This document shows positions 8,417 to 33,751 of a DNA stretch of 64,000 nt, piece after piece. Position 1 is the stretch's first letter, and every line of letters starts with the position of its first letter. The position numbers were made by a program, and so were the translations under genes. Origin of the DNA: an uncultured bacterium (GTDB taxonomy: Bacteria > Zixibacteria > MSB-5A5 > SM1-73); assembly GCA_965369445.1 (NCBI GenBank), contig CBDUQU010000001.1, positions 1,614 through 65,613 of the forward strand, in the 5' to 3' direction. The notes under the pieces were generated by a model. That model had not been told where the DNA came from. It saw only the letters and a list, made by a program, of their open reading frames with translations, and made no database searches.

Positions 8417-8728
8417 TTCATGTCTTCTTTGAAGGGATCTTTGAGAAACTGCGCAGGGCTGGAAACCCCGCCTACGGCGACTTCTCACCCCTCACCCCCG
8501 CCTCTGGTGGTTCGACTTCGTTTATCCTGAACGAAGTTGAAGGGCTCACCACCCTGTCTTCGACCCCGCACTTCGTCCTGAGACTCAGTGTCGAAGGAAG
8601 GTCGCTCAGACTCGAGGAGAGCTCGTCGAAGGGCGGGATTTTCAACCTGACCCTCTCCCCCAGAGGAGAGAAAACTTGGTCTTCCCTCCCTTGACGGGAG
8701 GGAATAAAAGGGAGGGTGATTATGTCAA

Positions 8729-10119: not shown

Positions 10120-11576
10120 AAATCTTTATGAGGCAAGCTCTCCATACCGCAGCGACGAGCCTCTCCCTCCATTAGTTTCGTCAACTCCTTCTTTGTATCG
10201 TCGGGCAGCCTGGAAGGCTCATATTTCCTGATCAGTTTTTCCACCTCGCTGTGTGCTCTCTCTAAGAGCGTCTTGCCGCCCTCCTCCAGCCATCTGGCTC
10301 TGCTCGCCCGATCAATAACCGATCCCGGCAGATGGAACTCTTGCTTGAGATATCGAAGCGTATGTTTCGATATGAGCAGGTGTTTTTCCTTGAGCAGTTC
10401 CTCGAATCTGGGGAGTGACGGAAAATCCTCTTTAGGCTCGATGCCTTTTATCATGCGAAGGGTCATCCCGCAAATTTCGTTGTCCAAGACGAGCTTCTCC
10501 AAGCTCTGGCAGCTTTCGAAATCAAGCATTCCGGGGCCGGATATGTTATTGATACCGGAGAGGGCCGCCAGCGTTGCTCCCATCGAGGATTCCAGACCGG
10601 CCTGGGCGTCAAGCTGTTTGGCATCACTGAGTGATATGTAGGCCTGCGTGGGCATACCCAGGTGTTTTCCGATCTCGTTGTACGCGCAGTCTATCATCTG
10701 CGTCTCCACCGCGCCCATGGGCGTGGTCTCGTATCGAACGTCGAATATGGCCGGCGAGCCGCCGTAAAGAACGGGCGCGCCCGGATTGGCGAGCTGGCTT
10801 ATCACCACGCCGCTTAAGGTCTCGGCGGTATGCTGTACCAAAGTTCCCACCAGGGTGACCGGCGCCATGAATCCCGATAAGGGCATGGAGACGAACTCCA
10901 CGGGGATTGAATACTGCGCGCAGTCGACAAGATTTTGAGAGGTTACATCGCTCCATTTCAAAGGGGAAGTCGGGCAGCAGGAAAATATGGTCAGCGGTTT
11001 GGCGGCAAGCTCCTCTTTGGATCCGCGGACGGCAAGCTGCAAGTCCCTCATTATGTTGAATGCCTCGATGGTAAATGCCCCGGTGACCACCGGCTTTTCA
11101 CAGAAAAGAAGCGAAAGGTAAAGCCGGTAGCTGTCTGATATCTTCTCGTGCACGTCGGCGGGTATGAAGGCCGTGCTCTGGGAGGCGATGTGATCGAGCC
11201 GGCTAACGAGCCTGGCATATCTGACATAATCAGCCGTTGTGGGTCTGCGAATCTTCCCTGTGCCAGAGTCTAAGATATTCAACGCCGCAGAACCGGGTGT
11301 GAAATAGACGTTGTACTCCGAGAAATCGTGCGTTTCCTTGCCCAGGACGTCGAAGAGTTTGAAGGACTCAGGAACCGTCTGCAAGGCTCGATCGATGATC
11401 TCATCCGTGAAAAGGACGTGGTATCCGTCCATCTCTACCTTTGCCCCATGCTCCTGCAGCATTGAGAGAATATTCTTGTTGTGAATCTCCACGCCGAGCT
11501 TGCACAGGACCTCCCTCGCTTCCGAGATTATCCTATCCCTTAGCTCATCATTTAAGAATCTCACCACCGGCCTCAT
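10116..11576 (-). CDS. MttB-superfamily (trimethylamine/quaternary-amine):corrinoid methyltransferase, non-pyrrolysine type
   Basis: 486 aa from the ATG at 11576, which has AAGGAG 6 nt upstream. The size, the hydrophobic Gly-rich C-terminal half (ISGPGMLDFES...LDNEICG) and the corrinoid neighbours fit the family. There is no in-frame amber codon. Confidence 0.6.
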   Translation of the reverse strand: MRPVVRFLNDELRDRIISEAREVLCKLGVEIHNKNILSMLQEHGAKVEMDGYHVLFTDEIIDRALQTVPESFKLFDVLGKETHDFSEYNVYFTPGSAALNILDSGTGKIRRPTTADYVRYARLVSRLDHIASQSTAFIPADVHEKISDSYRLYLSLLFCEKPVVTGAFTIEAFNIMRDLQLAVRGSKEELAAKPLTIFSCCPTSPLKWSDVTSQNLVDCAQYSIPVEFVSMPLSGFMAPVTLVGTLVQHTAETLSGVVISQLANPGAPVLYGGSPAIFDVRYETTPMGAVETQMIDCAYNEIGKHLGMPTQAYISLSDAKQLDAQAGLESSMGATLAALSGINNISGPGMLDFESCQSLEKLVLDNEICGMTLRMIKGIEPKEDFPSLPRFEELLKEKHLLISKHTLRYLKQEFHLPGSVIDRASRARWLEEGGKTLLERAHSEVEKLIRKYEPSRLPDDTKKELTKLMEGEARRCGMESLPHKDL

Positions 11577-11689
11577 CACATGCTCCTTTCGGATTCGCAA
11601 AGGTTCGCCATATCTTACATCAAAGCTTCGAGAATTGCAAGAGAATATCATGCCCGGTTCGAAGGTTCGGGAAAAATGTAACTTTTCTG

Positions 11690-11718
11690 TTGACAGTACG
11701 TAAGTACTTACGTAAATT
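11690..11718 (+). promoter_or_regulatory. sigma-70-like promoter (TTGACA-N17-TAAATT) with an embedded 16-bp perfect palindrome ACGTAAGTACTTACGT (11698-11713); putative MarR operator
   Basis: Read directly in the 185-bp divergent spacer between the MttB operon and the MarR-GNAT gene. Confidence 0.4.
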
Positions 11719-11761
11719 GAAAGAAGTTGAACACCGGTATAGAGATGATGGAGGTTCATTC

Positions 11762-16193: not shown

Positions 16194-17013
16194 AACGTTT
16201 GAACTCAGCGGTTTAAAAGCATTAGCTTTTAATCCGCTGAAGCGAATTGTTATTTGGTTTCTTTGATATTCCTAGTTTTTTGCAAATCCATTTTTCATAT
16301 TTTTTATCAATTGAAATTATACATCTATCCCAATGATCTTTTTCATCAATTTCTAAAGCTTCGTCATATTTTCTGATAAAATCTGATATAGAAATGTTGT
16401 CTGCTAGTACTTTTGCTTTAGTGCGTACCTGTGATGGCAGTTCGCTAAAGCTAATTGTTGACTTTTCAAGAATTATTCGGAAATATATTTTCTCTGCCTC
16501 AGAAACATTTTGCAGATTGGCGGATAATCTTTCCTCTACGGAATAATATCGTTTAGGAAGTTCCTTTTCTAGCTTTGATGGCAATTCATCAATGTTTTTA
16601 TATCTTATTTGTACTAGACCTGATAAATTAGACGGAAGATGTTTTTGATAGCTCCCCTTTTTGGTTTCTCGAATAAGCAATATTACATTTAATTGCTTAG
16701 CCAGGGCATACCCTAGCTCGATGTGGACATTTCGATTTTGGGATTTTGTTTCGAAGACGCAAAAAGCGCTTCTGTCCATTTGTTTTATCAACTCTTCCCA
16801 TAGCCACTTACCTGCATCAACAAATGGGGTTATTTCCATATTCTGTTTTGCTAAAAATTGTTTTACTTTCTTGTATAGTTTTTGGCCGCGAGAGTTTTTT
16901 TTAAATTCATGTCCATAGAAACATTTATGGTAATCTTTTAAATTTGTCTTTTTTGGTGAAAGCATTTCTTGTTCCTTTCAATTTTATTCTCACACAACGC
17001 TTGAACTGAGCGG
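16194..17013. repeat. 18-bp imperfect direct repeats (AACGTTTGAACTCAGCGG at 16194-16211; AACGCTTGAACTGAGCGG at 16996-17013) bracketing the TIR/NDT-like gene
   Basis: Read directly; 16/18 identical and in the same orientation. Confidence 0.6.
16222..16965 (-). CDS. TIR-like / nucleoside 2-deoxyribosyltransferase-like domain protein with an uncharacterised C-terminal half
   Basis: 247 aa at about 33% GC. The N-terminal 120 aa follow the flavodoxin-like TIR/NDT pattern (FYGHEF...FVDAGKWLWEELIKQMDRSAFCVFETKS...NVHIELGYALAKQLNVILLI, with an ELGYA motif as in the NDT family). The C-terminal 120 aa have no recognisable family. Confidence 0.45.
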   Translation of the reverse strand: MLSPKKTNLKDYHKCFYGHEFKKNSRGQKLYKKVKQFLAKQNMEITPFVDAGKWLWEELIKQMDRSAFCVFETKSQNRNVHIELGYALAKQLNVILLIRETKKGSYQKHLPSNLSGLVQIRYKNIDELPSKLEKELPKRYYSVEERLSANLQNVSEAEKIYFRIILEKSTISFSELPSQVRTKAKVLADNISISDFIRKYDEALEIDEKDHWDRCIISIDKKYEKWICKKLGISKKPNNNSLQRIKS

Positions 17014-17478: not shown

Positions 17479-18654
17479 TCACGATTCGACCCGCAGAACC
17501 CTGTCGGGAATCCTGACCCTCTCGGGCTTAGAACCTTCTTCCGGATGCTCAAAGATGGGCAAATACCGCACTGCCATAGCGAAGATGAAGAATCCGGTGG
17601 CTACCAGAGCCAGGGTGACGGCGATCTCCATCCATGACGGAAAGTAGTTGACCCCGGACGAAGCCACGAAACCGGTCGTGGACACGTTTAATCTGTTCAG
17701 CAAAAACCCGACGATGGTGCACACCGCCGCTATGTAAAGTCCCCTGGTGGAGAGCCTTATCTTTCGTATCGAGAGCAGGACGATGGGAACGATTATTCCT
17801 GCTAAGATCTCCAACCAGAAGAGCCCGGTCTCCATGCGGAGGAGGAAGAGTTCCGACCAAACACCTCGCATGAAGAAATCATAAATCTTCATAAGCAGGT
17901 AAATCACCAAAACCACCAGAAGGATTCTTCCAATGTCCGCCAGCACGTCCTGCTTCAGGCGGTGACCGAAAGCTCTAAAGCTCAGGTGTGATTCAAAAAT
18001 GACCATGGCGCATCCTGCCGCAATCGCGGAGACGTAGAACAGCAGAGGCAGAGACGCCGAGTACCAGAGCGTGTATAGCCTGTGAGGCACGATCAAGAAC
18101 AACGAACCCAAAGAGGACTGGTGCATGGTGGAAAGGACGACTCCCAGTATGACCAGGGGAACCGTTATCCTGCCTATCCATCTCTTGGGCCCGCTCCAGC
18201 CCAAACGTTCGAAGAGGTTCGGACTGAATTCGAAAAACAACACCCCGGTGTATAACATGACGCACATGGCTACCTCAAACAACGGGGAATGGAAGTTGCC
18301 CATAAAGAGAGGATTGTATAGCTTGTCCGGGCGTCCCACGTCAAAGAGAAGACCTACGATCACCAGAAGGTACCCCAAAAAAGCGGTTAAGATGGCGGGT
18401 TTCAGAACGGGATAGAACCGCTTAACGTGAAACACGTAAACTGCCGCCGCCAGGGTAAACCCGCCGGCGGCCAACCCCACTCCCGATATGACGTCGAAAC
18501 CAACCCACAGCCCCCAGGGAAACCTATCACTCAAATTAGTAGCTGCCCCCAGGCCGCCGGTGAAACGGACAATGGTCGCTATAAGGCCAGCCACCCAGGT
18601 CAGAAGCAGGACTACTTTCCAGAAAGTTATCTTGAACGGTAATTTGATACTCAC
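17479..18654 (-). CDS. NrfD/PsrC-family polytopic membrane subunit of a quinone-interacting redox complex
   Basis: 391 aa with 8-10 TM helices and no cofactor motifs. It sits immediately downstream of a 4Fe-4S NrfC/HybA-type partner. Confidence 0.65.
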   Translation of the reverse strand: MSIKLPFKITFWKVVLLLTWVAGLIATIVRFTGGLGAATNLSDRFPWGLWVGFDVISGVGLAAGGFTLAAAVYVFHVKRFYPVLKPAILTAFLGYLLVIVGLLFDVGRPDKLYNPLFMGNFHSPLFEVAMCVMLYTGVLFFEFSPNLFERLGWSGPKRWIGRITVPLVILGVVLSTMHQSSLGSLFLIVPHRLYTLWYSASLPLLFYVSAIAAGCAMVIFESHLSFRAFGHRLKQDVLADIGRILLVVLVIYLLMKIYDFFMRGVWSELFLLRMETGLFWLEILAGIIVPIVLLSIRKIRLSTRGLYIAAVCTIVGFLLNRLNVSTTGFVASSGVNYFPSWMEIAVTLALVATGFFIFAMAVRYLPIFEHPEEGSKPERVRIPDRVLRVES

Positions 18655-18712
18655 CTTGATCTCCTTCTCGTTATCAGCCTTCGATCGCTTTGCAGCTGCA
18701 CGTTTGTATCTT

Positions 18713-19468
18713 CTATTTCAACTCAGAGTCCTGCTGCTTGTTTTTGTATTCGGCCAACTCCATCCTGCGGTCGATAATCCACCATACCCCGTAAAGGAAT
18801 GCACCGCCGAAGATGGCTATGCTGGGAACACTTTTGAGCGCTGCCCAGGTAAGCTCAGGCAGGGGACGATCCCCAAGGTTGCCGGGGAAGCCGAGCGTCT
18901 CAAGTGGAACGCTGGACAGGATCAAAACAGACGTTCCACCAATTTCCTTCTCGCCGTATATGTGGTCCACATACAGATCCGGATTTTCTTCTATGCGTTT
19001 CCGCGCCACCCTGATCAGCTCATCTCGATCTCCGAATATGGTGGCCTCGGTGGGACATGCTTCGGCGCAGGCGCTAATCTTTCCTTCCTTCTGCCTCTCG
19101 TAGCACATGGTGCATTTTCTCACCTTGGGCGCACGTTTGTCCCATTCATAAGTCGGGACGGTGAAGGGACAGGCCTGCATGCAGTAGCGACACCCTATGC
19201 ATTTGTGTGCGTGATATATTACCGCACCCTCCGGAGTCTTCTCGAATGCCCCTACCGGGCATACTGAGGCACAGGAGGGGTCGTTACAGTGCATGCACAG
19301 TTGACGATAATAGACGCTGTCCTTTTCCTTCACCACGGTATAGGCTGTGGAGGAGAGCTCCTTTTCTTCCTCCCCTGGAAGGCCATTGGCCTCCTTGCAG
19401 GCTAAAGCGCAAAGCTGACACCCGATACACTTGGTGATATCTATCAGAAGCGCTTTGGGTTTTGTCAT
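18713..19468 (-). CDS. 4Fe-4S ferredoxin-type iron-sulfur subunit (NrfC/HybA/DsrO-like) with a C-terminal membrane anchor
   Basis: Four CxxCxxCxxxCP-type clusters (CIGCQLCALAC; CMHCNDPSCASVCP; CIGCRYCMQACP; CTMCYER...CAEACP) and a C-terminal helix (SIAIFGGAFLYGVWWII). Confidence 0.8.
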   Translation of the reverse strand: MTKPKALLIDITKCIGCQLCALACKEANGLPGEEEKELSSTAYTVVKEKDSVYYRQLCMHCNDPSCASVCPVGAFEKTPEGAVIYHAHKCIGCRYCMQACPFTVPTYEWDKRAPKVRKCTMCYERQKEGKISACAEACPTEATIFGDRDELIRVARKRIEENPDLYVDHIYGEKEIGGTSVLILSSVPLETLGFPGNLGDRPLPELTWAALKSVPSIAIFGGAFLYGVWWIIDRRMELAEYKNKQQDSELK

Positions 19469-19573
19469 TTGATGACTCCTTGTTATTTCTCTTCTATCGT
19501 CTTCTTGTTGCTGGCTGAACCATTGGAATCCGCATGTCTTGCCTTTTGTGCTCTGTTCGCAAACACCATTGGG

Positions 19574-20185
19574 TTAGCTCGCTGCTTCCGGTGCAGCGTC
19601 CGCCGCGGCACGTTTCGATCTCGAGGCCACCGTCCCTTTTTCAACCAGCCGATCGAGCACCAGGTCTGCCGGAACGGCTTGACCCTTGGCCAGGGCTCTC
19701 ATCATGGCGTCGGATAGCTCCTCCGGGGTGAATGGCTTGGGCACGTAATCGGATACCCCGGCCCTCATGGCTTTGATCGAGGTTTCGACCGAGGGATAGC
19801 CGGTAATCAGAATGACCGCCATGTTAGGATTTTCCTTCTTTATTCTTCTGGCTACTTCAATCCCATCGATCTCCGGCATCTTCCAGTCAGCGATCAACAC
19901 GTCGAATTCACTGCTCTTGGCCTTGCTCAAGGCCTCCTCTCCGGACAAAGCCACATCCACCTTGTAGCCTTCCCGGGTCAGGATCTTCTTGCAACTGTTG
20001 CACACAGTCTGCTCGTCGTCCACCACCAGGACGCTGGCGGCCGATCTGGCGGTGGCAGCAAGCGCAACAGCAGGTCGGGCAGAAGCGGTCATCTCCACCC
20101 TCTCCTCTACCCTCTTACCTCGTCTGACCAGAACATCGATCAATATGGCCGCTATGAACGTGAACACTACCAACAAAGCTACCAT
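19574..20185 (-). CDS. membrane-anchored single-domain response-regulator receiver (REC) protein
   Basis: N-terminal TM helix, then a CheY-like REC domain (VLVVDDE...DVLIADWKMPEIDG...ITGYPSVE...KPF). Confidence 0.65.
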   Translation of the reverse strand: MVALLVVFTFIAAILIDVLVRRGKRVEERVEMTASARPAVALAATARSAASVLVVDDEQTVCNSCKKILTREGYKVDVALSGEEALSKAKSSEFDVLIADWKMPEIDGIEVARRIKKENPNMAVILITGYPSVETSIKAMRAGVSDYVPKPFTPEELSDAMMRALAKGQAVPADLVLDRLVEKGTVASRSKRAAADAAPEAAS

Positions 20186-20221
20186 TTCTCACTCCTTTTG
20201 TTTTGGCTGTCATTTGCTGAA

Positions 20222-20890
20222 TCAGTCCAGGGGTCTTTTCCCGGCAAGCGCTTTGACAATGCCAGCGAACACGGTGAAAATCACTATCGGACCCAGGGCG
20301 ATGAAGAATAGCCTGGAAAAAACCGGGGCTAAGACGGATTTGAAGACGAACTTTATCGGACCGACCTTAGGCTCTTCTGCAGGCATAGGAGCCACCGCCG
20401 GAGCGGTCACGGCTTCTTCCCTGACCACCTCTGCCACCATGGGCTTAGCCTTCGGGCTTACCACCCCTTTTTCGATCAACCGATCCAGCACCAAATCTGT
20501 CGGTACAGCCTGACCTTTGGCCAGGGCTCTGATCATGGCGTCGGACAGCTCTTCCGGGGTGAAGGGCTTCGGCACATAGTCGGATACCCCGGACCTGATG
20601 GCTTCAATCGAGGTCTCCACCGAGGGATAGCCGGTGATCAATATCACCGCAATCTCGGGATTCTCCCTCTTGATTCTTCTGGCCACCTCCATTCCATCCA
20701 TCTCCGGCATCTTCCAATCCGAGATGACCACGTCGAATCCGTTTCTTTTGATCTTGCTCAACGCCTCCTCGCCGGACAAAGCCACATCCACGTTGTAGCC
20801 TTCCCGGATCAGGATCTTCCTGCAGCTGGAGCAGACGGTCTTTTCGTCATCCACCACCAGGACATTCGGTTTACGTTTCATTTTAATCAC
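20222..20890 (-). CDS. REC-domain protein with a C-terminal membrane anchor
   Basis: Paralog of the preceding gene (VLVVDDE...VVISDWKMPEMDG...). The C-terminal hydrophobic tail is FSRLFFIALGPIVIFTVFAGIV. Confidence 0.65.
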   Translation of the reverse strand: MIKMKRKPNVLVVDDEKTVCSSCRKILIREGYNVDVALSGEEALSKIKRNGFDVVISDWKMPEMDGMEVARRIKRENPEIAVILITGYPSVETSIEAIRSGVSDYVPKPFTPEELSDAMIRALAKGQAVPTDLVLDRLIEKGVVSPKAKPMVAEVVREEAVTAPAVAPMPAEEPKVGPIKFVFKSVLAPVFSRLFFIALGPIVIFTVFAGIVKALAGKRPLD

Positions 20891-20895
20891 TCCCT

Positions 20896-21912
20896 TCAGT
20901 CAGCCCCCTGGGGGCTAACATGACAAAATAGAGGTTTCACCACCGCGCCCAGGATAATGGGCAACAAAGCCGGGAAGAAAAGCCGAGAGGCCAAAGCAGA
21001 CAGGAAGAGCTTTCCTATGGGGACCTTAGCCTGGTGATGCTCTTTCCCCAACCTTCCGGTTGGTTCCGGCTCTGGTTTTTCCTTTATCTCCAGTTCTGTT
21101 TTGACGCTTAGTCCTAAACCCGGGGGAATCACTCTATGTTCAGAATTCAGTTCATGTCTCGCCTGGTCTGACGGAATGGAGACATTGCCTGACCAGTTTT
21201 TTAGATCCTCTTCTAAGTAGAAAGGTTCCAGTTGAACGATCCATCCCTTTCCGAATGGATCTTTGTTGATCAAGTCGGTATTGAAGTTGATCTCATAGTT
21301 GATTTTGACCAGCCGGCCACGAACGGGCACGAGAAGTTTGTGCATCTGCTTGTCGGAAGCCAGTATCCTGATAAACAGTCTTCCTTGTTCGACCCTGCTC
21401 TGGTGACAGGGTAAGTCGACGTAAAGGATGTCGCCCACCGATTCCCTGAACAGGTTGTTTACCCCCACCTTGACAGTGCCGTTCTCCTCTATCTTGGCCC
21501 AGATATACTTCTGATAATGCAGCAGGTCTGTCCTTCCGCTCTTTCGCTCCTGCAGGGCCTTTCTTAGCACTTGCGTTAATTGATCAGGGCTGAGAGGCTT
21601 GGGAACGTAGTTGGAAACGCCCAATCTCATCGCCTGGACCGCGGATTCCACTGACGGATATCCGGTTATCATTATCACCACCATATCCGGATGATTCTTT
21701 TTCACGATCCTCAGGACCTCCATCCCGTCGATCTCCGGCATTTTCCAGTCGGCGATGAGCACGTCATATTTATCCTCTTCCACTTTCTTGAGGGCTTCTC
21801 GTCCGTTCAGAGCAATTTGCACATTGTGTCCTGCTCGGCTCAATATCTTCCGGCAGCTATTGCAAACTATCTCCTCATCATCCACCACTAATACATTTGC
21901 TCGGTACGGCAT
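20896..21912 (-). CDS. REC domain, GcvH-like (glycine-cleavage H / lipoyl-like) domain, then a C-terminal membrane anchor
   Basis: REC domain at the N-terminus. The central KYIWAKIEENGTVKVGVNNLFRESVGDILYVDLP...LINKDPFGKGWIVQL matches the GcvH pattern (E.G...VGITD.A...LGDIVFVELP ... DPYGEGWL). The C-terminal tail is ASRLFFPALLPIILGAVV. Confidence 0.6.
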   Translation of the reverse strand: MPYRANVLVVDDEEIVCNSCRKILSRAGHNVQIALNGREALKKVEEDKYDVLIADWKMPEIDGMEVLRIVKKNHPDMVVIMITGYPSVESAVQAMRLGVSNYVPKPLSPDQLTQVLRKALQERKSGRTDLLHYQKYIWAKIEENGTVKVGVNNLFRESVGDILYVDLPCHQSRVEQGRLFIRILASDKQMHKLLVPVRGRLVKINYEINFNTDLINKDPFGKGWIVQLEPFYLEEDLKNWSGNVSIPSDQARHELNSEHRVIPPGLGLSVKTELEIKEKPEPEPTGRLGKEHHQAKVPIGKLFLSALASRLFFPALLPIILGAVVKPLFCHVSPQGAD

Positions 21913-23048
21913 CTCCTATCACCTGCCTTTCTGTTCTTTCCGCTTCTCCTATAGCGCAAGAGATGTGCCGATTGTGACTTTTTTCACAAAGATTCGCCAA
22001 GCCTTTCAGTTAATGGCTTGAAATATAAGAGCTTATGTTTCGTGCCGAAGAACGAGGATGGGTGTATTCTGCAGATTCAGCCGAGTTGGTGCATGTCAAA
22101 GTTATGCACCGAAATCAGAGGGTTTTGTTGAGATACAAAGACTTAGGAGGAATTCGCGGTGTATAGGAAAAATATATAGTGAATACGTTTCATATACGTT
22201 TTTAGCACGTAGGTCCGAAATCCTCCGCCTCGGGCAGCGATTTCAGACATGATAAACTTCCCTCCCTCGATGGTTCGACAAGCTCACCACAAGTGGGAGG
22301 GAATAAAAGGGAGGGTGAAATGAGGTATTCTCTCGTTGGTAACGGACACCTTGTCCGTTACCCTTCAACTTCGTTCCCTTCGGGTCTGCCCAGACGGATC
22401 CGTAGGACAGCCTGCTTGACAGTTTCTCTTGTAGCCGCAGACTTCAGTCTGCGGGGGCGGATGGCGGGGGGCTCACAGGGTGATTGTCGGGCACCCCAAC
22501 GGCCCTTCGACAAGCTCAGGGCGGGATCGCCCTACAGGCCCATCCGGGCACCCCAACCCGCAAGTCTGGACTTGCTGGACATACTGGACTTGCTGGACTT
22601 TGTTTTTGGTTTTTTTTATGGTTCGAAGTCCGGGGTCGAGATAGAAGATCGTTATCCCGGAGGGGGGCGTTGGCCCCTGGCTGGGTTTTGGTGTTTGTGA
22701 ACCCGACGGCGGAGAGGGACCGACCCACCGGGTGACAAGTGAGCCGGTTTTCTTTGGAGTTGGTATGAAGCAGATGATTCATATGATTCTTATCCTCCCG
22801 AAAGTTACGGCTCATACAATAAACAATCGTCTCCTCAATAATACTGGAGCAATCTCTTTCACCATCAAAGTTCTTTTGAATTTGGTCTTTGTGGTAAGAG
22901 AGACACGCATTGGCGGTCTTTTTGTCCCCCTGAGAAGGGGTTCACCCTGAAGGGGGAAATCGAAGATCCGTAGAACAGGGGGTTATTGTATTTCTCCCCC
23001 TGATAAGGGGGACACAGGGGGTTCCATGTTGATTTCGTACCATTTTCC

Positions 23049-23077
23049 TTGACTTCTACAGGTCTGCGAGCTATAAT
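23049..23077 (+). promoter_or_regulatory. consensus sigma-70 promoter TTGACT-N17-TATAAT upstream of hsdM
   Basis: TTGACT at 23049-23054, a 17-nt spacer, TATAAT at 23072-23077; about 180 nt upstream of the hsdM ATG. Confidence 0.6.
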
Positions 23078-23257
23078 ATTCGTTGTCAAGAGAGCTTATA
23101 TCTGCAGGAGGCAGGGCTGGGCATACCGGCTCTGGGCTTGGACTACACGGGCCACAGTCATTCGTCACTCACGGCGCTCAAAGCCATGTTCAGACTGCTA
23201 TACGGATCAAAATAAACATAGTCAGCCACCAAGAGTGACGCAAACGTAGGGAAACAC

Positions 23258-24712
23258 ATGTTCGAGCAGACCTTCAAAAACATCGACGATGTGCTCTGGA
23301 AGGAGGCGGGGTGTTCGTCCGAGCTGGACTATACGGAACAATCCTCCTGGATGCTGTTCCTCAAATACCTCGATGACCTGGAGCAGGAACGGGCCATGCG
23401 CGCGAAATTGCGAGGCAAGTCCTACGAGTTCCTCCTGGAAAAACGCTTCCGGTGGTCCAGTTGGGCCGCGCCAAAAAACCGCGCCGGAGAGTTTGACCAC
23501 GACAAGGCGCTTACCGGCGACGACCTCATCGACTTCGTCAACCGTGAGCTCTTTCCCTACCTCCAGGGCTTCAAGCAGCGCGCCGCCAGCCCCGACACCA
23601 TCGAGTACAAGATTGGCGAGATCTTTGGCGAGATCAAGAGCAAATTCCAGAGCGGCTACAGCCTGCGGGACACGCTGGAACTGATGGACGCCCTGCGCTT
23701 CCGTTCGCAGAAGGAAAAGCACGAGCTGTCCCACCTTTACGAAGCCAAGATCAGGAACATGGGCAATGCCGGCCGCAACGGCGGCGAGTACTACACCCCC
23801 CGTCCGCTGATTCGCGCTATGGTCCGGGTGATCAAACCCAAGATCGGCGAGCGGATATATGACGGGGCTTGCGGTTCGGCGGGCTTCCTGTGCGAGTCCC
23901 ACGACTACCTGCGCAAGGGCAAACTGACCACCAGCCAACTCAAGAAACTCCAGACCAAGACCTTCTATGGAAAAGAGAAGAAGAGCCTGGCCTACGTCAT
24001 CGCCATCATGAACATGATCCTGCACGGCATCGACGCTCCCAACATCCTCCACACCAACACCCTGTCCGAGAACATCATGGACATCCAGGAGAAGGACCGC
24101 TTCAACGTCATCCTCGCCAATCCGCCCTTCGGCGGCAAAGAGCGCAAGGAAGTCCAGCAGAACTTTCCCATCAAGACCAGCGAAACCGCCTTCCTCTTCC
24201 TCCAGCACTTCATCAAATCGCTCAAGGCCGGCGGCCGCGCGGCGGTGGTCATCAAGAACACCTTCCTCTCCAACTCCGACAACGCCTCCCGCGCCCTGCG
24301 TCAGGAGCTGCTCGAAAACTGCAACCTCCATACTATTCTCGACTGCCCCGGCGGCACCTTCCTCGGGGCGGGCGTGAAGACCGTAGTGCTATTCTTCGAG
24401 AAGGGCGCGCCCACACGGAAAACATGGTACTACCAACTCAATCCCGGCCGGAGCCTGGGCAAGACCAACCCGCTCAACGACGACGACCTCAAGGAGTTCG
24501 TGAAACTGCAGGCCAAGTTCAAGGATTCTGAGCAGTCCTGGACCGTGAACATTGCCGACGTGGATCAGGAGACCTTCGACCTCTCCGTCAAGAACCCCAA
24601 CACGCCGGAGGAAGCCCCGCTTCGCGAACCACGGGAAATCGTCGAGGAGATGGCCGCGCTGGATGCCGAGAGCGCCAAGATCCTTGATGGGATTCGGGGG
24701 ATGCTGCGGTGA
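23258..24712 (+). CDS. hsdM: Type I restriction-modification system DNA methyltransferase subunit
   Basis: N6-adenine methyltransferase motif IV NPPFG (ILANPPFGGKERKE) and the SAM-binding region (IYDGACGSAGFL); operon position before hsdS/hsdR. Confidence 0.9.
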   Translation: MFEQTFKNIDDVLWKEAGCSSELDYTEQSSWMLFLKYLDDLEQERAMRAKLRGKSYEFLLEKRFRWSSWAAPKNRAGEFDHDKALTGDDLIDFVNRELFPYLQGFKQRAASPDTIEYKIGEIFGEIKSKFQSGYSLRDTLELMDALRFRSQKEKHELSHLYEAKIRNMGNAGRNGGEYYTPRPLIRAMVRVIKPKIGERIYDGACGSAGFLCESHDYLRKGKLTTSQLKKLQTKTFYGKEKKSLAYVIAIMNMILHGIDAPNILHTNTLSENIMDIQEKDRFNVILANPPFGGKERKEVQQNFPIKTSETAFLFLQHFIKSLKAGGRAAVVIKNTFLSNSDNASRALRQELLENCNLHTILDCPGGTFLGAGVKTVVLFFEKGAPTRKTWYYQLNPGRSLGKTNPLNDDDLKEFVKLQAKFKDSEQSWTVNIADVDQETFDLSVKNPNTPEEAPLREPREIVEEMAALDAESAKILDGIRGMLR

Positions 24713-26031
24713 ACTGTCAATTCTCTACAAAACCACTGCGCGACCTTATAAAGGAGAATCCCAAGTCTACGCTTAAGGTTCGAGACTCGCTTGATACGGG
24801 TCGCTTTATTTTCTTAACTAGCGGGACAAAGACTCGGTATTCGAATGATTACTTGTGTGAAGAAGAGAACCTCTTTCTTGCTACCGGAGGAACCGCTCAC
24901 GTTGGCTACTTCAATGGACCGGCCGCATATTCAACGGACTGCTATTCGATAACAACGAAAGAAGGGCTTTCAACAAAACTCCTGTATTACTTTCTTCTGA
25001 GTCAGTTAAATTACATCAATGAGTCGCTGTTCAGGGGAGCAGCGCTAAAGCACCTACAAAAGCGGGCCTTCAAAGAACTTCCCGTTCCTGTCCCGCCAGA
25101 GGTTCTTCAGGAGCGGATCGTGGCGATCCTCGACGAGGCGTTTGCTGGTATCGCTACGGCGGTCGCCAATGCCGAGAAGAACCTCCCCAACGCGCGGGAG
25201 TTGTGGGCAGGTGCATTGGCCTCGGCGTGCTCCGGGGCACTTACCAAGGGCTGGAGGCCCAAGAATAGCGAGATTGAACCGGCTAAAGACCTGTTGTTAC
25301 GCGCAATCGCTCGACGGCACGAGCAGCGTAGAACTTCCGGTAGGCCCAAAGAACCGCAACCCCCAATTGCTGCTACAAAGACAACTATCCCCGATACGTG
25401 GGTGTGGGCATCTCCCGAACAGCTTTCGACACATATTGTCGATTGTCCGCACAGTACTCCGAGGTGGGCCGATGAAGGGCCCATCTGTATCCGCACGACG
25501 AATTTCAGACCGGGATATCTCGACCTAGGTTCGGTGAGATACGTTTCGGAAGTCGCCTACACCGAACGGGCAAGGCGGTTAGAACCGAAACCAGGGGATG
25601 TCTTATACAGCCGTGAAGGCGGGATCCTAGGTATCGCTTGCACCTTTCCCGATGGACTGAAAGCGTGCTTGGGACAGAGGATGATGCTCTTTCGCCTTGA
25701 CAATTGCGCAGTGCATCCTCGCTATTTCGCTTGCGTACTGAACTCACCTCACATCTTGACGATAGTGAATCGGTTAACAGCGGGAGCCGCTGCACCACAC
25801 ATAAACATACGAGACATAAGGACATTTCCGATCCCGCTTCCGCCGTTCTCTGAACAGCAACAAATCGTCACAGTTCTTGACACTGTGTGGACATCGATCC
25901 AGCGCCTTGAGCGGATCCAATTGCGGAAGCTGGACTTCCTCGCCGAACTCAAGCAATCCATTCTCCAGAAAGCCTTCTCTGGCGAACTCACCGCCAAACC
26001 CGACAAAGCCCTCGCGGAGGCCGGACTATGA
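24709..26031 (+). CDS. hsdS: Type I restriction-modification specificity subunit with two target-recognition domains
   Basis: Two variable target-recognition domains separated by conserved central and C-terminal helices (the latter LKQSILQKAFSGELT). ATGA overlaps with hsdM and hsdR. Confidence 0.85.
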   Translation: MNCQFSTKPLRDLIKENPKSTLKVRDSLDTGRFIFLTSGTKTRYSNDYLCEEENLFLATGGTAHVGYFNGPAAYSTDCYSITTKEGLSTKLLYYFLLSQLNYINESLFRGAALKHLQKRAFKELPVPVPPEVLQERIVAILDEAFAGIATAVANAEKNLPNARELWAGALASACSGALTKGWRPKNSEIEPAKDLLLRAIARRHEQRRTSGRPKEPQPPIAATKTTIPDTWVWASPEQLSTHIVDCPHSTPRWADEGPICIRTTNFRPGYLDLGSVRYVSEVAYTERARRLEPKPGDVLYSREGGILGIACTFPDGLKACLGQRMMLFRLDNCAVHPRYFACVLNSPHILTIVNRLTAGAAAPHINIRDIRTFPIPLPPFSEQQQIVTVLDTVWTSIQRLERIQLRKLDFLAELKQSILQKAFSGELTAKPDKALAEAGL

Positions 26032-28421
26032 ACGAAGCCGAAACCCGCGCTGAACTCATTGATCCCGCCCTGAAGGCTGCCGGTTGGGGCGTGGTGGAAG
26101 GCAGCCGCGTATGCCGTGAAGTCATCACCCTCGGCCGCCTGCAAGGCGCAGGGAAGCGTGCTCAGCAGGACATTGCCGACTACGTGCTGGTCTACCGGAA
26201 CCAGAAGCTGGCCGTCATCGAGGCCAAGCGCCGTGATTTGCCCGACACCGAAGGCGTGGCCCAGGCCAAAAAGTACGCCGAAAAACTCCAAGCGCGTTTC
26301 GCTTACTCCACCAATGGCGACGGGATCTACCAGATCGACATGAAAACCGGAGCCGAGAGGTATATCCCGCACTACCCATCCCCCGCCCAACTCTGGGCCG
26401 ACACCTTTGCCGAGGAGAACGTGTGGCGCAACCGTTTTGCCGAGGTTCCCTTCGAGGATAAGGGCGGCGCCTGGGAAGCCCGCTACTACCAGCACAATGC
26501 CATCAACCGCACATTGGAAGCCATCGCGGCAGGTAAACCGCGCATCCTGCTCACCATGGCCACCGGCACCGGTAAGACCTTCATCGCCTTCCAACTCGCC
26601 TGGAAACTTTTCCACAGCCGCTGGACGCTCGCCCGCGACGCCAAACGTCGACCCCGTGTCCTGTTCCTTGCCGACCGCAACATCCTTGCCGACCAGGCCT
26701 ACAACGCCTTCTCCGCCTTTCCCGAAGATGCGCTGGTGCGCATTGCGCCGGACGAGATCCGCAAGAAGGGCCGCGTACCGAAGAACGCCAGTATCTTCTT
26801 CACCATCTTTCAGACCTTCATGACCGGCGCCGATGAAGAAGGCAACCCCAGCCCCAACTTCGGCGACTATCCCCCGGACTTCTTTGACTTCATCGTCATT
26901 GACGAATGTCACCGCGGCGGCGCCAACGACGAGAGCAACTGGCGCGGCATCATGGAGTACTTCTCTCCGGCCCTGCAACTCGGCCTTACCGCCACTCCCA
27001 AGCGCAAGACCAACGCCGACACCTATGCCTACTTCGGCAAACCTGTCTACATCTATTCCCTGAGAGACGGCACCAACGACGGCTACCTCACGCCTTTCAA
27101 AGTCAAACAGATCGCCACCACTATCGACGAATACGTCTACACATCTGACGACCATGTCATCGAGGGCGAGGTAGAGGTAGGCCGGCGCTATACCGAGGAC
27201 GACTTCAACCGGGTGATTGAGATACAGGCCCGCGAAAAGTACCGCGTGAAGGTCTTCATGGACGCCATCGACCAGAGCCAGAAGACCCTCGTCTTCTGTG
27301 CCACCCAGGACCACGCCCTGGCGGTACGCAACCTGGTGAACCAAATCAAGGCCAGCGCCGAACCAAACTACTGCGTGCGGGTGACCGCCAACGACGGCGC
27401 CTTAGGTGACCAGCACCTGCGCACCTTCCAGGACAACGAGAAAACCATCCCCACCATACTGACCACTTCCCAGAAACTATCCACCGGTGTGGATGCCCGG
27501 AACATCCGCAACATAGTCCTGATGCGTCCCATCAATTCCATGATTGAGTTCAAGCAGATCATCGGGCGCGGCACCCGGCTCTTCGACGGCAAGGACTACT
27601 TCACCATCTACGACTTCGTAGAGGCATACAAACACTTCAACGACCCCGAATGGGATGGCGAACCGGTAGAGCCGGAACCGTGTGAGCGCTGCGGCAACAG
27701 TCCGTGCACCTGTGAAGTAGAACCACCCGAACCTTGTCCTGTATGTGGCGAGATTCCCTGTGAATGTGAGAAAGAACCGCCTGAGCCTTGCCCTGTCTGT
27801 GGTCAACGCCCTTGTATCTGCAAGAAGCGGACCAGAGTTAAGGTCAAACTGGCAGACGGCAAAGAACGCAGCATCCAACACATGATGGCAACAACCTTCT
27901 GGAGTCCGGACGGCAAGCCCATGTCCGCCGCCGAGTTCATCGAACGCCTGTTTGGCGACCTGCCCGAGCTTTTCAAAGACGAAAACGAACTCCGAAAGCT
28001 GTGGAGCCGCCCCGATACCCGCAAGGCGCTCCTTCAGGGTCTTGCAGAAAGAGGCTACGGCGATGAGCAACTCGCCGAGGTTCGCTCCATGATCGATGCC
28101 GACAAGAGCGATCTCTACGACGTACTGGCTTACGTCGCCTTTGCCCGCGCCCCCATCACCCGCGAGGAGCGGGTGAACACTCACAGAAATCTTATCTTCT
28201 CCCACTATGCGGACAAGCAGCAGGAGTTCCTCGACTTCGTCCTGGGTCACTACATCCAACAAGGAATTGGCGAACTCGATCAGGACAAATTACCCCATCT
28301 TCTTGAACTCAAATACCACGCCATCAGCGACGCCGTCGCGGCCCTGGGGAACGTGACAGACATCCGCGAGGTTTTTATAGGTTTTCAAAAGCACTTGTAC
28401 GTGCAGCAGCCAGCGGCTTGA
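26028..28421 (+). CDS. hsdR: Type I restriction enzyme R subunit (EcoEI-like, with HsdR C-terminal domain)
   Basis: Canonical N-terminus MNEAETRAELIDPALKAAGW; Walker A MATGTGKT; DEAH-type DECHR; helicase motif VI QIIGRGTR; C-terminal EcoEI_R_C-like region. Confidence 0.9.
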   Translation: MNEAETRAELIDPALKAAGWGVVEGSRVCREVITLGRLQGAGKRAQQDIADYVLVYRNQKLAVIEAKRRDLPDTEGVAQAKKYAEKLQARFAYSTNGDGIYQIDMKTGAERYIPHYPSPAQLWADTFAEENVWRNRFAEVPFEDKGGAWEARYYQHNAINRTLEAIAAGKPRILLTMATGTGKTFIAFQLAWKLFHSRWTLARDAKRRPRVLFLADRNILADQAYNAFSAFPEDALVRIAPDEIRKKGRVPKNASIFFTIFQTFMTGADEEGNPSPNFGDYPPDFFDFIVIDECHRGGANDESNWRGIMEYFSPALQLGLTATPKRKTNADTYAYFGKPVYIYSLRDGTNDGYLTPFKVKQIATTIDEYVYTSDDHVIEGEVEVGRRYTEDDFNRVIEIQAREKYRVKVFMDAIDQSQKTLVFCATQDHALAVRNLVNQIKASAEPNYCVRVTANDGALGDQHLRTFQDNEKTIPTILTTSQKLSTGVDARNIRNIVLMRPINSMIEFKQIIGRGTRLFDGKDYFTIYDFVEAYKHFNDPEWDGEPVEPEPCERCGNSPCTCEVEPPEPCPVCGEIPCECEKEPPEPCPVCGQRPCICKKRTRVKVKLADGKERSIQHMMATTFWSPDGKPMSAAEFIERLFGDLPELFKDENELRKLWSRPDTRKALLQGLAERGYGDEQLAEVRSMIDADKSDLYDVLAYVAFARAPITREERVNTHRNLIFSHYADKQQEFLDFVLGHYIQQGIGELDQDKLPHLLELKYHAISDAVAALGNVTDIREVFIGFQKHLYVQQPAA

Positions 28422-28655
28422 CCGGATGCAACCCCTCTTCTAACTGCTTTATCCGTTCTATCCCTTTAATCCGTTGACAGCTTCGGATGCCCCACCGCTT
28501 GCCACGCCCCTTTAATACCTACCGCCTATCCTCTCTTTCCACAAAGAGCAAATATACCCTAACTTCAATGGTGAAGAAGATAGCTCCACAGTGTATGGGA
28601 GAACCAATGTCTTTTGCATGCACAGAACCCCGCCTTAACGGAGAAGAAGAATCTC

Positions 28656-28880
28656 ATGAACCATATATTTGATACCGAGGATGAAGAACAGAGCTCCACG
28701 CAGTTGAAGTTCCTAAAAACCTTGATCGACAAGCTCATTAAAGGACGAAAACACCCAACGGGTGCTCCGCCATCCTCTCGGACGACCAACTACTTTTATG
28801 GTAAGCTTACGAACTACACTCAGAATACAGATTTAAACGTACATAATTCTTTGCCTGATAACTGCTTGGAGGCAAAGTGA
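28656..28880 (+). CDS. hypothetical small protein (74 aa) in the AT-rich spacer downstream of hsdR
   Basis: ATG at 28656 with GGAGAAGAAG upstream; no recognisable domain. The coding call rests only on the RBS and an open frame. Confidence 0.2.
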   Translation: MNHIFDTEDEEQSSTQLKFLKTLIDKLIKGRKHPTGAPPSSRTTNYFYGKLTNYTQNTDLNVHNSLPDNCLEAK

Positions 28881-29069
28881 GAAAAAAATTAAAAATACCA
28901 CCAGATGCACCAGAAGCGCCAGTTCCACCAGTCAAACATCTCCGCTTGCGGTGAATCCTTCAGATGAATCCGTTGCAGAAAGGATTTAGGTGTTCCTCCC
29001 TAGTATTTCACTTGACCCCCTGAATCCTCGACCCCTAGAACCCTTCCTGTCACGCTAACAGATCTCGGC

Positions 29070-30467
29070 CTATTTCTCTATCCTGATATTGTATTTTCGC
29101 ATCAAAGCCTGGAAGTTGGGCCTCAGCATACCCACTTCTTTGGCTGACTTAGTGATGTTCCAGTCGTTTCTCGTCAGCGCGTCTAAGATGAACGACTTCT
29201 CGACATTGCCGACGGCAGATTCTCTCAGTCGTCTCTTAGCTTCCTTCAGCTCTTCTGAAGTCTTTGGGATGAAGGTGTCCGGATGAGCCACCTCCGATCT
29301 GACCACAAAAGGGAGATGTTCTGTAGTAATGGTGTCCCCTTCGGCCATGACGATAGCCCGCTCTATCACATTCTCCAACTGCCTTACATTCCCGGGCCAG
29401 GTGTGGTCAATTAGCATGTTCATCGCCTCGACCGAGATGCTCTTTATCTTTTTCTTCATCTCCTGCCCGTATTTCTTGAGAAAATGATAAGCTAAGAGGG
29501 GAATATCGTCTTTTCTCTCCTTCAGCAGCGGTACCCTTATGCTAACTACATTCAGACGGTAGAATAGGTCCTCCCGGAATTTCTCATCCTCGACCAGTTT
29601 TTCTAAGTCTTTATTGGTGGCTACGATAAATCTCAAGTCCACCTTTTTGGACTTGACCTCCCCCACCGGGGTGAACTCCCTTTCCTGAATCACCCTCAGT
29701 AGCTTAGACTGGAAATTCTGGCTCGTGTCCCCGATCTCGTCTAAGAAGATCGAACCGCCGTTGGCTACCTCGAACAGCCCTGGTTTGGTTACTATTGCCC
29801 CGGTGAAGGATCCTTTAACGTGGCCGAAAAGTTCGGATTCTAAGAGTTCCTGAGCTAAGACTCCGCAGTCGACCGTTACAAAGGGTTTTTGTTTTCTGGG
29901 GCTGTTGAAATGGAGGGCGCGGGCGATCAACTCCTTGCCTGTGCCGCTTTCTCCCCGGATCAGAACCGTGCTGTCTGTTGGAGCGACCTTGCGAATCAGC
30001 TTATAGACCTCCTGCATCTTGGGGCTGCTGCCAATGATGTTGTCGAAACCATATTTGGCCTCCAGCTCCTTGCGCAGGTAGATATTCTCAATTATCAGGC
30101 TTTTTTTTTCCAGAGCCTTTTCAACCACAATCAAGACTTCGTCCGGGGTAAAGGGCTTGGGAATGTAATCAAACGCCCCTAATTTCATCGCCTGGACGGC
30201 GGACTGGACGGTGGAGTAACCGGTAATCATAATCACCGCGATATCGGGGTACTTTTCCTTGACTTTTTCCAAAACCTGAATCCCGCCGATTCCCGGCATC
30301 TTCATGTCGGTGATTACGATGTCGATTGGCTCTTTTTCCAGGAGGTCAAAAGCTCCCTGACCGGAAAGGACGGTAAGAACATCGTGGCCGCCGCCTTCCA
30401 GTATCTTCCGGCAGCTCCTTAACACGATCTCCTCATCGTCCACCACCAGTATTCTGGCTTTAATCAT
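29070..30467 (-). CDS. sigma-54-dependent response regulator (NtrC/Fis family: REC, AAA+, HTH)
   Basis: REC domain (ILVVDDEE...DMKMPGIGG); Walker A GESGTGKE; the GAFTGA-type sigma-54 contact loop (KGSFTGA); C-terminal Fis HTH. Confidence 0.9.

Positions 30468-33673: not shown

Positions 33674-33751
<78 letters not shown>

Follow-up and report, generated by a model that had tools for sequence, protein, structure and literature searches.

A putative sigma-54-controlled operon of Zixibacteria combining membrane-tethered receivers, a GcvH-like domain and an NrfC/NrfD-type redox module

Why should three membrane-tethered receiver proteins, one of them carrying a domain with the fold of the glycine cleavage H protein (GcvH), be encoded together with an NrfC/NrfD-type redox pair that has no catalytic subunit beside it? 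This question is raised by positions 17479-21912 of a 64,000-nucleotide (nt) stretch of contig CBDUQU010000001.1, from an uncultured member of the Zixibacteria; the whole stretch is referred to here as the window, and all coordinates are positions within it. The analysis points to the effector operon of a sigma-54-dependent two-component system, and to a composite mechanism in which the GcvH-like protein would be a phospho-controlled subunit of the redox module, a reading to which, taken as a whole, we give about an even chance. A preliminary description of this DNA had proposed three paralogous REC proteins with membrane anchors, co-oriented with NrfC- and NrfD-like genes, and all five genes were recovered at the following positions, with a Response_reg domain in each of the three receivers (TM, transmembrane; aa, amino acids).

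20896-21912, minus strand: REC1, a REC-GcvH-like-TM protein of 338 aa (Pfam, hydropathy, AlphaFold2, Foldseek)
21565-21894, minus strand: REC domain of REC1, residues 7-116 (Pfam)
21205-21513, minus strand: GcvH-like domain of REC1, residues 134-236 (Pfam GCV_H)
Residues 241-298 of REC1, minus strand: disordered linker (AlphaFold2)
20926-21018, minus strand: C-terminal anchor helix of REC1, residues ~299-329 (AlphaFold2)
20222-20890, minus strand: REC2, a REC-TM protein of 222 aa (Pfam, hydropathy)
19574-20185, minus strand: REC3, a TM-REC protein of 203 aa (Pfam, hydropathy)
18713-19468, minus strand: NrfC/HmcB/HybA-like ferredoxin of 251 aa (Pfam, NCBIfam, hydropathy)
17479-18654, minus strand: NrfD/HmcC/HybB-like integral membrane subunit of 391 aa (Pfam, NCBIfam, hydropathy)

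Read from 5' to 3', the five genes are separated by gaps of 5, 36, 105 and 58 nt, no terminator-like site was found between them on the minus strand, and the region from 21912 to 17479 is predicted to be a single operon. Independent transcription of the REC genes, which the preliminary description had named as fatal to its interpretation, is made less likely by the prediction of one upstream promoter (described below) and by the lack of internal terminators. The linkage of the REC genes to NrfC and NrfD is also kept in 10 Zixibacteria species, and, as had been suspected, neither the operon nor any other part of the window encodes a catalytic subunit.

All three receivers matched Response_reg strongly (E 4e-29 to 4e-32, 101-111 bits against a cut-off of 30.2). 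The receiver residues of REC1 are intact (D11, D12, D55, T83 and K105), and their equivalents are present in REC2 and REC3. Across the REC-GcvH proteins, D55 was kept in 33 of the 33 sequences aligned and K105 in 41 of 42, which indicates that these proteins are genuine response regulators. The anchors had been described as C-terminal in REC1 and REC2 and N-terminal in REC3, and this is the arrangement predicted by hydropathy (residues 311-329, 194-212 and 2-20, respectively), with the AlphaFold2 helix of REC1 extending from 299 to 329. The anchors of REC1 and REC2 have in common an SRLFF motif. The anchor of REC3, ILIDVLVRRGKR, is followed by RRGKR, which places its receiver in the cytoplasm, and is similar to the anchor of TM-GcvH-like proteins from Bacteroidota, ITIDYLVYRKKG.

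The three receivers also carry a CxxC motif (VCNSC; 21853-21867 in REC1) in the first turn of helix alpha1, beside the acidic pocket, a position at which the receiver of the activator introduced below has LxxC. A thiol switch or a metal-binding site peculiar to this lineage is a possible function of the motif. Its role as a general redox switch was considered and rejected, because it is specific to the Zixibacteria, the second cysteine being found in only 2 of the 32 other REC-GcvH representatives, and it cannot therefore explain the class.

Which kinase could address these receivers? The preliminary description had advised that a cognate kinase be sought by co-occurrence, and a candidate was found in the window itself, together with an activator gene, 7 kb upstream of the operon and on the same strand. 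The two regulatory genes, and the elements of the promoter that precedes the operon, are as follows.

30468-32057, minus strand: sensor histidine kinase of 529 aa (Pfam, hydropathy, sequence)
31707-31721, minus strand: heme-c motif CYACH of the kinase (sequence)
31572-31592, minus strand: heme-c motif CYTPDCH of the kinase (sequence)
29070-30467, minus strand: NtrC-type sigma-54 activator of 465 aa, with REC, AAA+ and HTH_8 domains (Pfam, NCBIfam)
22158-22199, minus strand: conserved block farther upstream, with GTATA/TATAC repeats, a candidate for a second binding region of the activator (alignment of 11 loci)
22089-22109, minus strand: inverted repeat GTGCAT-N9-ATGCAC, likely the upstream activating sequence of the activator (alignment)
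21973-21988, minus strand: CRP-type palindrome TGTGA-N6-TCACA, perfect, adjoining the -24 element and invariant in 11 Zixibacteria loci
21956-21969, minus strand: sigma-54 promoter element GGCAC-N5-TTGC, ~45 nt before the ATG at 21912 (motif scan, alignment)

In three related loci (L001, L007 and L014; L numbers denote the loci compared, P numbers proteins) the kinase and activator genes abut the operon, with the REC-GcvH gene coming immediately after that of the activator. In the window, a type I restriction-modification system (hsdM, hsdS and hsdR; 23258-28421, plus strand) lies between the activator gene and the target promoter. The spacing between the two is ~160 nt in L007, and the nucleotide comparison with this locus identifies an insertion in the window, flanked by 21970-23257 and 28422-29069. 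The close relative L005 carries different DNA at the insertion site, which suggests a variable insertion spot.

The kinase is composed, in order, of a first transmembrane helix, a periplasmic domain of ~166 aa (residues 29-194), a second transmembrane helix, and the HAMP, HisKA and HATPase_c domains. Both of its Cys-His motifs (CxxCH and Cx2-4CH) were kept in 12 of 12 orthologous kinases from the Zixibacteria, Desulfobacterota and Bacteroidota clusters. These motifs would bind one or two covalent c-type hemes, making the protein a putative sensor of redox state or of a small ligand. The sensor domain had no sequence relative in the PDB, and its match to the Pfam family Mcp40H-20_sensor was below threshold (24.4 bits against a cut-off of 27).

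The promoter was examined by aligning the regions upstream of 11 Zixibacteria loci. Its -24/-12 element was invariant in all 11, and was also present in the deltaproteobacterial locus L002 and in the Deferrimicrobiaceae loci. The motif GGCAC-N5-TTGC occurs four times in the window, against 0.48 occurrences expected. The inverted repeat is located ~120-140 nt upstream of the -24/-12 element, and its TGCATA..TATGCA core was kept in the 11 loci. As judged from these elements, the layout is that of a usual activator-dependent sigma-54 promoter; the invariance of the CRP-type palindrome beside the -24 element suggests that a second regulator acts there. No Rfam family was matched in the 1.3-kb non-coding stretch upstream of the operon. 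Of the other occurrences of the motif, two are at 35301-35314 (minus strand) and 35466-35479 (plus strand). Another, at 42513-42526 on the minus strand, is inside the open reading frame (ORF) 42061-42666, a short distance before the N-terminal methylation (pilin) motif that this ORF encodes at residues 76-100, and is probably the sigma-54 promoter of a type IV pilin gene, the real start of which would be further downstream.

The receiver domains provide a link between this regulatory pair and the operon. The REC domain of the activator is 50% identical to that of REC1, and their alpha1 helices are nearly identical (EEIVCNSCRKIL being one of the two stretches compared). In two-component systems, helix alpha1 of the receiver touches the kinase and contributes to specificity. 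Because of this similarity, the activator and the three tethered proteins most likely receive their phosphoryl groups from one and the same kinase.

Such a branched pathway could also be read as a phosphate sink, in which the three REC proteins compete with the activator for phosphoryl groups and provide negative feedback, with no direct effect on the NrfC/NrfD pair. Their close paralogy to the receiver of the activator, their transcription from the activator's own target promoter, and the variation in the number of plain REC genes (0-2, depending on the species), as expected of a tuning element, would all be in agreement with this. A sink, however, leaves unexplained the conserved membrane anchors with their conserved charged residues, the conserved GcvH-like domain with its class-specific H191 and F155, and the REC-less GcvH-like proteins that flank NrfC and NrfD in other phyla, and we regard it as unlikely.

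What, then, is the GcvH-like domain? The preliminary description had assigned the central domain to the GcvH/lipoyl fold, and this identification was upheld by sequence and by predicted structure. GCV_H (PF01597) matched residues 134-236 of REC1 (E 2.2e-19, 70 bits against a cut-off of 22.2), and the sequence match in the PDB was the H-protein of Thermus thermophilus (1onl, E 5e-16). In an AlphaFold2 model of REC1, built from 43 homologues, the predicted local distance difference test score was 86-96 for the REC domain and ~74-89 for the GcvH-like domain. A Foldseek search with this model recovered receiver domains (template modelling score 0.93) and the Escherichia coli apo-H-protein (3a7a_B; template modelling score 0.82, root-mean-square deviation 1.7 A). 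The NCBIfam GcvH models, by comparison, scored 62-72 bits, under their cut-offs of 116-117. Typical GcvH is a stand-alone protein of ~130 aa linked to gcvT and gcvP, whereas the domain described here is internal to a protein of 338 aa, and neither gcvT nor gcvP was found in the window.

The same description had considered the domain a possible carrier of lipoyl, biotin or acyl groups. In alignments with H-proteins of known structure, K188 of REC1 falls precisely on the lipoyl lysine, so that the lipoylatable residue for which it had advised a check is indeed in place in this protein, but the position is arginine (P0073 and P0083) or glutamate (P0082) in orthologues from the same operon, although most Zixibacteria orthologues keep the lysine, and it is glutamate or leucine in the deltaproteobacterial homologues. 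With the domain as query, 1.84 billion cluster representatives were searched exhaustively by HMMER, and the best 150 (clusters at 50% identity) were classified with purpose-built REC and GcvH profiles; a word-indexed search with the isolated domain, which returned 3 proteins only, was superseded by this one. The nearest 150 representatives comprised 42 REC-GcvH proteins, 12 TM-GcvH proteins and 96 others. The lipoyl position was lysine in 4 of the 42 REC-GcvH representatives, compared with 51 of the 67 ordinary short GcvH proteins. The REC-fused class has residues of its own, a histidine at H191 (83%) and a phenylalanine at F155 (86%), and an extra C-terminal helix that it has in common with the TM class. 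Since the lipoyl lysine is replaced in orthologues and is present in so few groups of the class, lipoylation is unlikely, and the GcvH-like domain of REC1 is probably non-lipoylated.

A lipoylated or biotinylated K188, working with the Fe-S module as a swinging arm for electrons or acyl groups, would nonetheless have some points in its favor beyond the alignment of this lysine and its retention in most Zixibacteria. Several REC-less TM-GcvH-like proteins have lysine at the position, GcvH-like domains are elsewhere fused to HdrC-like and CCG modules, which act on disulfides in other systems, and LbpA of the sHdr systems offers a precedent (PMC6067878). Set against these, besides the substitutions and the counts given above, are the replacement by ASDK of the ESVK motif that flanks the lipoyl site, the lack of a lipoate ligase or synthase among the window ORFs scanned, and the location of the ferredoxin, expected by homology on the opposite side of the membrane. 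A swinging arm on K188 is thus very improbable.

The fusion of REC to GcvH had been called unusual. It has remained uncharacterized, but it is not rare, as it accounts for 42 of the 150 nearest representatives; close homologues form ~88 clusters at 90% identity, nearly all with the two domains, and those with a taxon name are from Zixibacteria. A look-up of the exact REC1 sequence matched no contig. REC-GcvH proteins form a broad, uncharacterized class of response regulators. Further architectures contain the GcvH-like domain as well: it follows a periplasmic PBP-like domain and a transmembrane helix (L016, 7-1719), follows a Cys-rich domain, or stands as three copies ahead of a fusion of FAD-oxidase, Fer4_8 and CCG (P0307, P0243 and P0326 being the proteins concerned besides that of L016). 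Such a variety of upstream modules is more in keeping with a role of the GcvH-like domain in output, or as an adaptor, than with the carriage of a cofactor. The REC-less GcvH-like forms were also observed to have a common C-terminal tail, QDGG...W..F.

The other half of the operon resembles known membrane redox modules. The 251-aa ferredoxin matched Fer4_11 in Pfam and has 16 cysteines in four motifs, enough for four [4Fe-4S] clusters, as well as a C-terminal transmembrane helix (residues 214-232) followed by a basic tail. Its best NCBIfam matches were HmcB (273 bits, cut-off 420) and HybA (204 bits, cut-off 263), both under the equivalog cut-off. The same holds for the 391-aa subunit, which scored 333 bits with HmcC (cut-off 550) and 285 bits with HybB, under the equivalog cut-offs, and matched NrfD (PF03916) with 85 bits against 25.8. 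Ten helices are predicted in this subunit, and the count of lysines and arginines (20 on the side of the N- and C-termini, 9 on the other) argues for cytoplasmic termini, the orientation of 10-helix NrfD subunits such as HybB and ActC, in which the termini are on the cytoplasmic (N) side (PMC8076601). Substitutions of R89, Y99, E148 and H184 in HybB reduce hydrogen oxidation and mark a proton pathway (PMC8076601). In an alignment of the window protein with E. coli HybB and eight relatives, Y99, E148 and H184 were invariant in the 9 sequences aligned, and R89 is replaced by lysine in the window protein. With these residues retained, the NrfD-like subunit looks functional, and the pair is read as a proton-coupled electron-transfer module that interacts with quinone or quinol and serves periplasmic carriers.

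The ferredoxin has no twin-arginine translocation (Tat) signal, and no upstream in-frame extension is possible; its first cluster motif begins at residue 14, which leaves no room for a signal peptide. Distant members of the cluster, from Bacteroidales and Deferrimicrobiaceae, have a ferredoxin with a classical RRxFLK Tat signal, and the signal-less family itself reaches into the Bacteroidota. The basic tail after the transmembrane helix, together with the canonical orientation of NrfD, nevertheless places the Fe-S domain in the periplasm. An inverted NrfD in the Tat-less clade, as proposed for SoeC, was considered and rejected, as the positive-inside bias is the same in relatives with and without the Tat signal.

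These features are those expected if the operon encodes part of a larger enzyme: the signal-less NrfC-like protein would be co-exported, as a Tat hitchhiker, with an unlinked catalytic subunit bearing a Tat signal, such as a periplasmic hydrogenase, for which NrfC and NrfD would be the membrane anchor. In a survey of pairs of tail-anchored ferredoxin and HybB-like subunit, a signal-less example was reported, and a neighboring gene product, a Tat-dependent Fe-Fe hydrogenase, was proposed as the carrier on which it hitchhikes (PMC10924467). The lack of a Tat signal in 10 ferredoxin orthologues and in 120 of 120 homologues (at least 57% identity) agrees with such an arrangement, as does the periplasmic placement drawn from the basic tail and from the orientation of NrfD. 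On the other side, no Tat-signal protein was found in or next to the operon in ~20 loci, nor elsewhere in the window, a count that covers operon neighborhoods and the window and not whole genomes; the remaining genes of the window are housekeeping genes. Co-export with an unlinked enzyme is a real possibility, though we would put it somewhat short of even, and it is compatible with the control mechanism proposed here. A further candidate for the Tat partner, the Fe-S protein encoded upstream of the kinase, was rejected because it has no signal peptide. This protein of 418 aa (32232-33488, minus strand) is cytoplasmic, has Cys-rich motifs and ends in a 2x[4Fe-4S] domain, and is encoded at the same position in L007.

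The reading that we prefer joins these parts in one pathway. The kinase would sense the periplasmic redox state, or a ligand, through heme, and would activate the NtrC-type regulator, which, as synteny and the promoter suggest, would switch on the sigma-54 promoter. By homology, the operon would then supply a quinone-interacting module of the HybAB/HmcBC type, consisting of a tail-anchored four-cluster ferredoxin and a 10-helix NrfD. The same kinase would phosphorylate the three tethered receivers at the cytoplasmic face of the membrane, and these, by means of the GcvH-like domain and the anchor helices, would alter the activity, the proton coupling or the assembly of the module from the cytoplasmic side. 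The GcvH-like domain would be a repurposed H-protein fold, a cytoplasmic adaptor or regulatory subunit of NrfC and NrfD that has been fused to REC in the Zixibacteria. A single signal could in this manner set both the amount of the module, by transcription, and its activity or assembly, by phosphorylation. What the sequences show are the domains, the synteny, the promoter, the loss of the lipoyl lysine, the heme motifs and the predicted topologies; the phosphotransfer from kinase to REC, the contact between the GcvH-like domain and NrfD, and the direction of electron flow are what we infer.

How far is this arrangement kept in other genomes? A scan of one genome per GTDB species returned 10 Zixibacteria species and one deltaproteobacterium. 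Every Zixibacteria locus with sufficient sequence had, in this order, the REC-GcvH gene, 0-2 plain REC genes, NrfC and NrfD, and a gene of the REC2 type, with the C-terminal anchor, was present in six of them. In L085 and L086, from the Bacteroidota, the gene order is tetraheme cytochrome c, TM-GcvH-like protein (234 aa), NrfC, NrfD and GcvH-like protein (207 aa), followed by the HAMP kinase, the sigma-54 activator and an M54 peptidase. In the Bacteroidales loci L016, L024 and L025, a TM-GcvH-like (or PBP-like-TM-GcvH-like) protein is followed by NrfC, NrfD, a TM-GcvH-like protein, the kinase, the activator and the M54 peptidase. The Deferrimicrobiaceae loci (L030, L049, L074 and L084) contain, one after the other, the kinase, the M54 peptidase, the activator, two GcvH-like genes, NrfC, NrfD and a TM-GcvH-like gene, with a TGGCAC-N5-TTGC promoter ahead of the first GcvH-like gene. 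An apparent NrfD-GcvH fusion in L030 was rejected as a spurious ORF of high GC content, its N-terminal part being off-frame from the real NrfD gene. Gene content thus defines a putative conserved unit of NrfC, NrfD, the heme-motif kinase and the sigma-54 activator, usually with GcvH-like proteins predicted to face the cytoplasm, and in the Zixibacteria the GcvH-like partner is, by domain prediction, fused to REC. A scan of metagenomes with the REC-GcvH alignment gave mostly generic REC matches and only 3 REC-GcvH loci (L092-L094); three other REC-GcvH representatives are on contigs shorter than 2 kb. The small M54 (archaemetzincin-type) peptidase gene was observed with the kinase and activator genes in L016, L024, L030, L049 (2004-2525), L086 and L087; near the Zixibacteria kinase and activator it was not found, either in the window or upstream of the kinase in L001.

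Several of the loci, and some features of the proteins, weigh against the proposed mechanism. In the deltaproteobacterial L002, where orthologues of the kinase (48% identity) and of the activator (56% identity) occur together with sigma-54 promoters, REC-GcvH stands alongside an Hdr-like/flavoprotein module instead of NrfC and NrfD. Of the three REC-GcvH genes at this locus, one is extended by an HdrC-like di-cluster domain; the locus further encodes a REC-STAS protein, a CCG protein similar to HdrB and a flavoprotein of 1218 aa. In the metagenomic L092-L094, the REC-GcvH gene directly follows the kinase gene and is the sole regulator there. With REC-GcvH accompanied by an Hdr-like module, or by the kinase alone, the GcvH-like domain may belong to the signaling side and not to the redox pair. 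In L087, conversely, NrfC, NrfD, kinase and activator occur without a GcvH-like gene, so that this partner is frequent and not obligatory. The C-terminal anchor is absent from some REC-GcvH orthologues (L001, P0073-P0084), and the evidence for contact of the REC or GcvH-like proteins with NrfC or NrfD is their gene linkage. No enzyme that might be electron donor or acceptor for NrfC and NrfD was identified, and, given the missing Tat signals of its family, the ferredoxin may be located elsewhere than in the periplasm.

The same loci bear on a reversed relationship, in which NrfC, NrfD and the GcvH-like/REC proteins would be a sensor input that reports the redox state of the quinone pool or of the periplasm to the kinase or activator, and not a regulated respiratory enzyme; they might, for instance, hold the activator back at the membrane, as PspA does. 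NrfC, NrfD, the kinase and the sigma-54 regulator are the invariant core across phyla, with no catalytic subunit; REC-GcvH accompanies the orthologous kinase and activator even where another redox module replaces NrfC and NrfD, and the PBP-like-TM-GcvH architecture resembles a transmembrane signal transducer. But in the Zixibacteria and Deferrimicrobiaceae the sigma-54 promoter drives the NrfC/NrfD operon itself, which is the mark of an output, the proton-path residues of HybB are kept in NrfD, and some clusters include a periplasmic tetraheme cytochrome, as expected of a working electron-transfer module. A sensory role of this kind seems to us quite unlikely.

The mechanism that we favor, with phospho-control of the module from the cytoplasmic side, can be extended to the whole family, in a version that is more speculative and, on balance, rather doubtful. 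The GcvH-like domain would then be a new class of output or adaptor domain that docks on the cytoplasmic face of HybB-type NrfD proteins, and elsewhere on Hdr-like Fe-S modules, where it would gate the proton pathway, the activity or the assembly. In the Zixibacteria, the di-heme kinase would control a respiratory quinone module both at transcription and, by way of the membrane-tethered receivers, after translation. Taken together, the di-heme kinase, the sigma-54 activator, NrfC/NrfD and the GcvH-like proteins would make up a unit for redox homeostasis, so far undescribed and spread over several phyla.

Each part of the locus has known relatives. The pairs HybA/HybB of E. coli hydrogenase-2 and HmcB/HmcC of the Desulfovibrio Hmc complex have, like the window pair, a four-cluster ferredoxin with a C-terminal transmembrane helix beside a 10-helix subunit of the NrfD family. 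The window pair differs from them in lacking the Tat signal, a hydrogenase, the HmcA multiheme cytochrome and HmcD, HmcE and HmcF, none of which was present in the operon or the window, and in scoring under the equivalog cut-offs; its operon encodes REC and GcvH-like proteins instead. The product of rrf1 is a receiver-type protein. This gene and rrf2 are regulator genes that follow the hmc operon (PMC10924467). The GcvH-like domain has, in sequence and predicted structure, the fold of GcvH and of LbpA, and, like LbpA of the sHdr systems, it is genomically tied to Fe-S/Hdr-like redox proteins (PMC6067878). It differs from both in that the lipoyl lysine is not conserved in the REC-GcvH class, which has its own histidine and phenylalanine, the extra C-terminal helix, and a fusion to REC or to an anchor. 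In contrast to GcvH, no gcvT, gcvP or lipoate-ligase genes are linked to the operon, and the genes of the LbpA/sHdr systems (the dedicated lipoate ligase and shdr) were not found in the window.

The regulatory genes are similar to the NtrBC, AtoSC and ZraSR types of sigma-54 system, with a HAMP-HisKA-HATPase kinase, a REC-AAA+-HTH_8 activator, and a -24/-12 promoter with upstream palindromes, whereas the window kinase has two heme-c motifs and its pathway appears to be branched, with up to three extra tethered receivers. A periplasmic sensor domain with CxxCH, between two transmembrane helices, is also found in the Geobacter chemoreceptors GSU0582 and GSU0935 (PMC3460858); the window protein, unlike these, has two motifs (CxxCH and Cx2-4CH), and its output is a kinase and not a chemoreceptor. 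Receivers without a DNA-binding output are known in CheY, DivK and the REC-STAS regulators, a REC-STAS gene being located between REC-GcvH genes in L002, but those of the window have membrane anchors, and a GcvH-like output domain was not found in the literature searched. The parts (REC, the GcvH fold, NrfC/NrfD and regulation of the NtrBC type) are known ones, but none of the specific families fits in full, each being missed on one or more of the defining features tested (lipoyl lysine, Tat signal, equivalog score, partner subunits). From searches of the literature on REC-GcvH, on GcvH with NrfD and on Zixibacteria with NrfD, no account emerged either of REC-GcvH regulators or of a cluster that unites GcvH-like genes with NrfC/NrfD, kinase and activator.

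NrfD-family modules connect quinone pools to many anaerobic respirations, and, to our knowledge, their activity is thought to be controlled only by way of expression. Direct phospho-control of such a module, if true, would be a new mode of regulating membrane bioenergetics. The locus also gives a context to a large, uncharacterized class of REC-GcvH-like response regulators and to a family of sensor kinases with periplasmic heme-c motifs. The annotation "glycine cleavage H protein" given to membrane-anchored GcvH-like proteins is misleading for metabolic reconstructions from metagenomes, and the large clade of tail-anchored ferredoxins without Tat signal poses a question of export route and topology for Tat biology.

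A few other features of the window were observed. Just downstream of the operon, an ORF of 247 aa (16222-16965, minus strand) was weakly matched by TIR-type families (in Pfam, CAP12-PCTIR_TIR with 23.7 bits; in PADLOC, a TIR effector with E 7e-5); its absence from this site in L005, a relative with 95% identity, suggests a recent insertion or deletion. A corrinoid methyl-transfer cluster is located at 7502-11759 on the minus strand, and consists of an MttB-family methyltransferase (10116-11759), a protein with Met_synt_B12, the B12-dependent methionine synthase activation domain (9376-10119), a B12-binding protein (8729-9376) and a homocysteine S-methyltransferase (7502-8488). On the plus strand, a protein of 638 aa (59938-61854) had a match in PADLOC to PDC-S39, a candidate defence family (E 6e-32), and a weak one to DUF7380. 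The sole Rfam matches in the window were two tRNA genes, at 33677-33751 and 33852-33925 on the minus strand.

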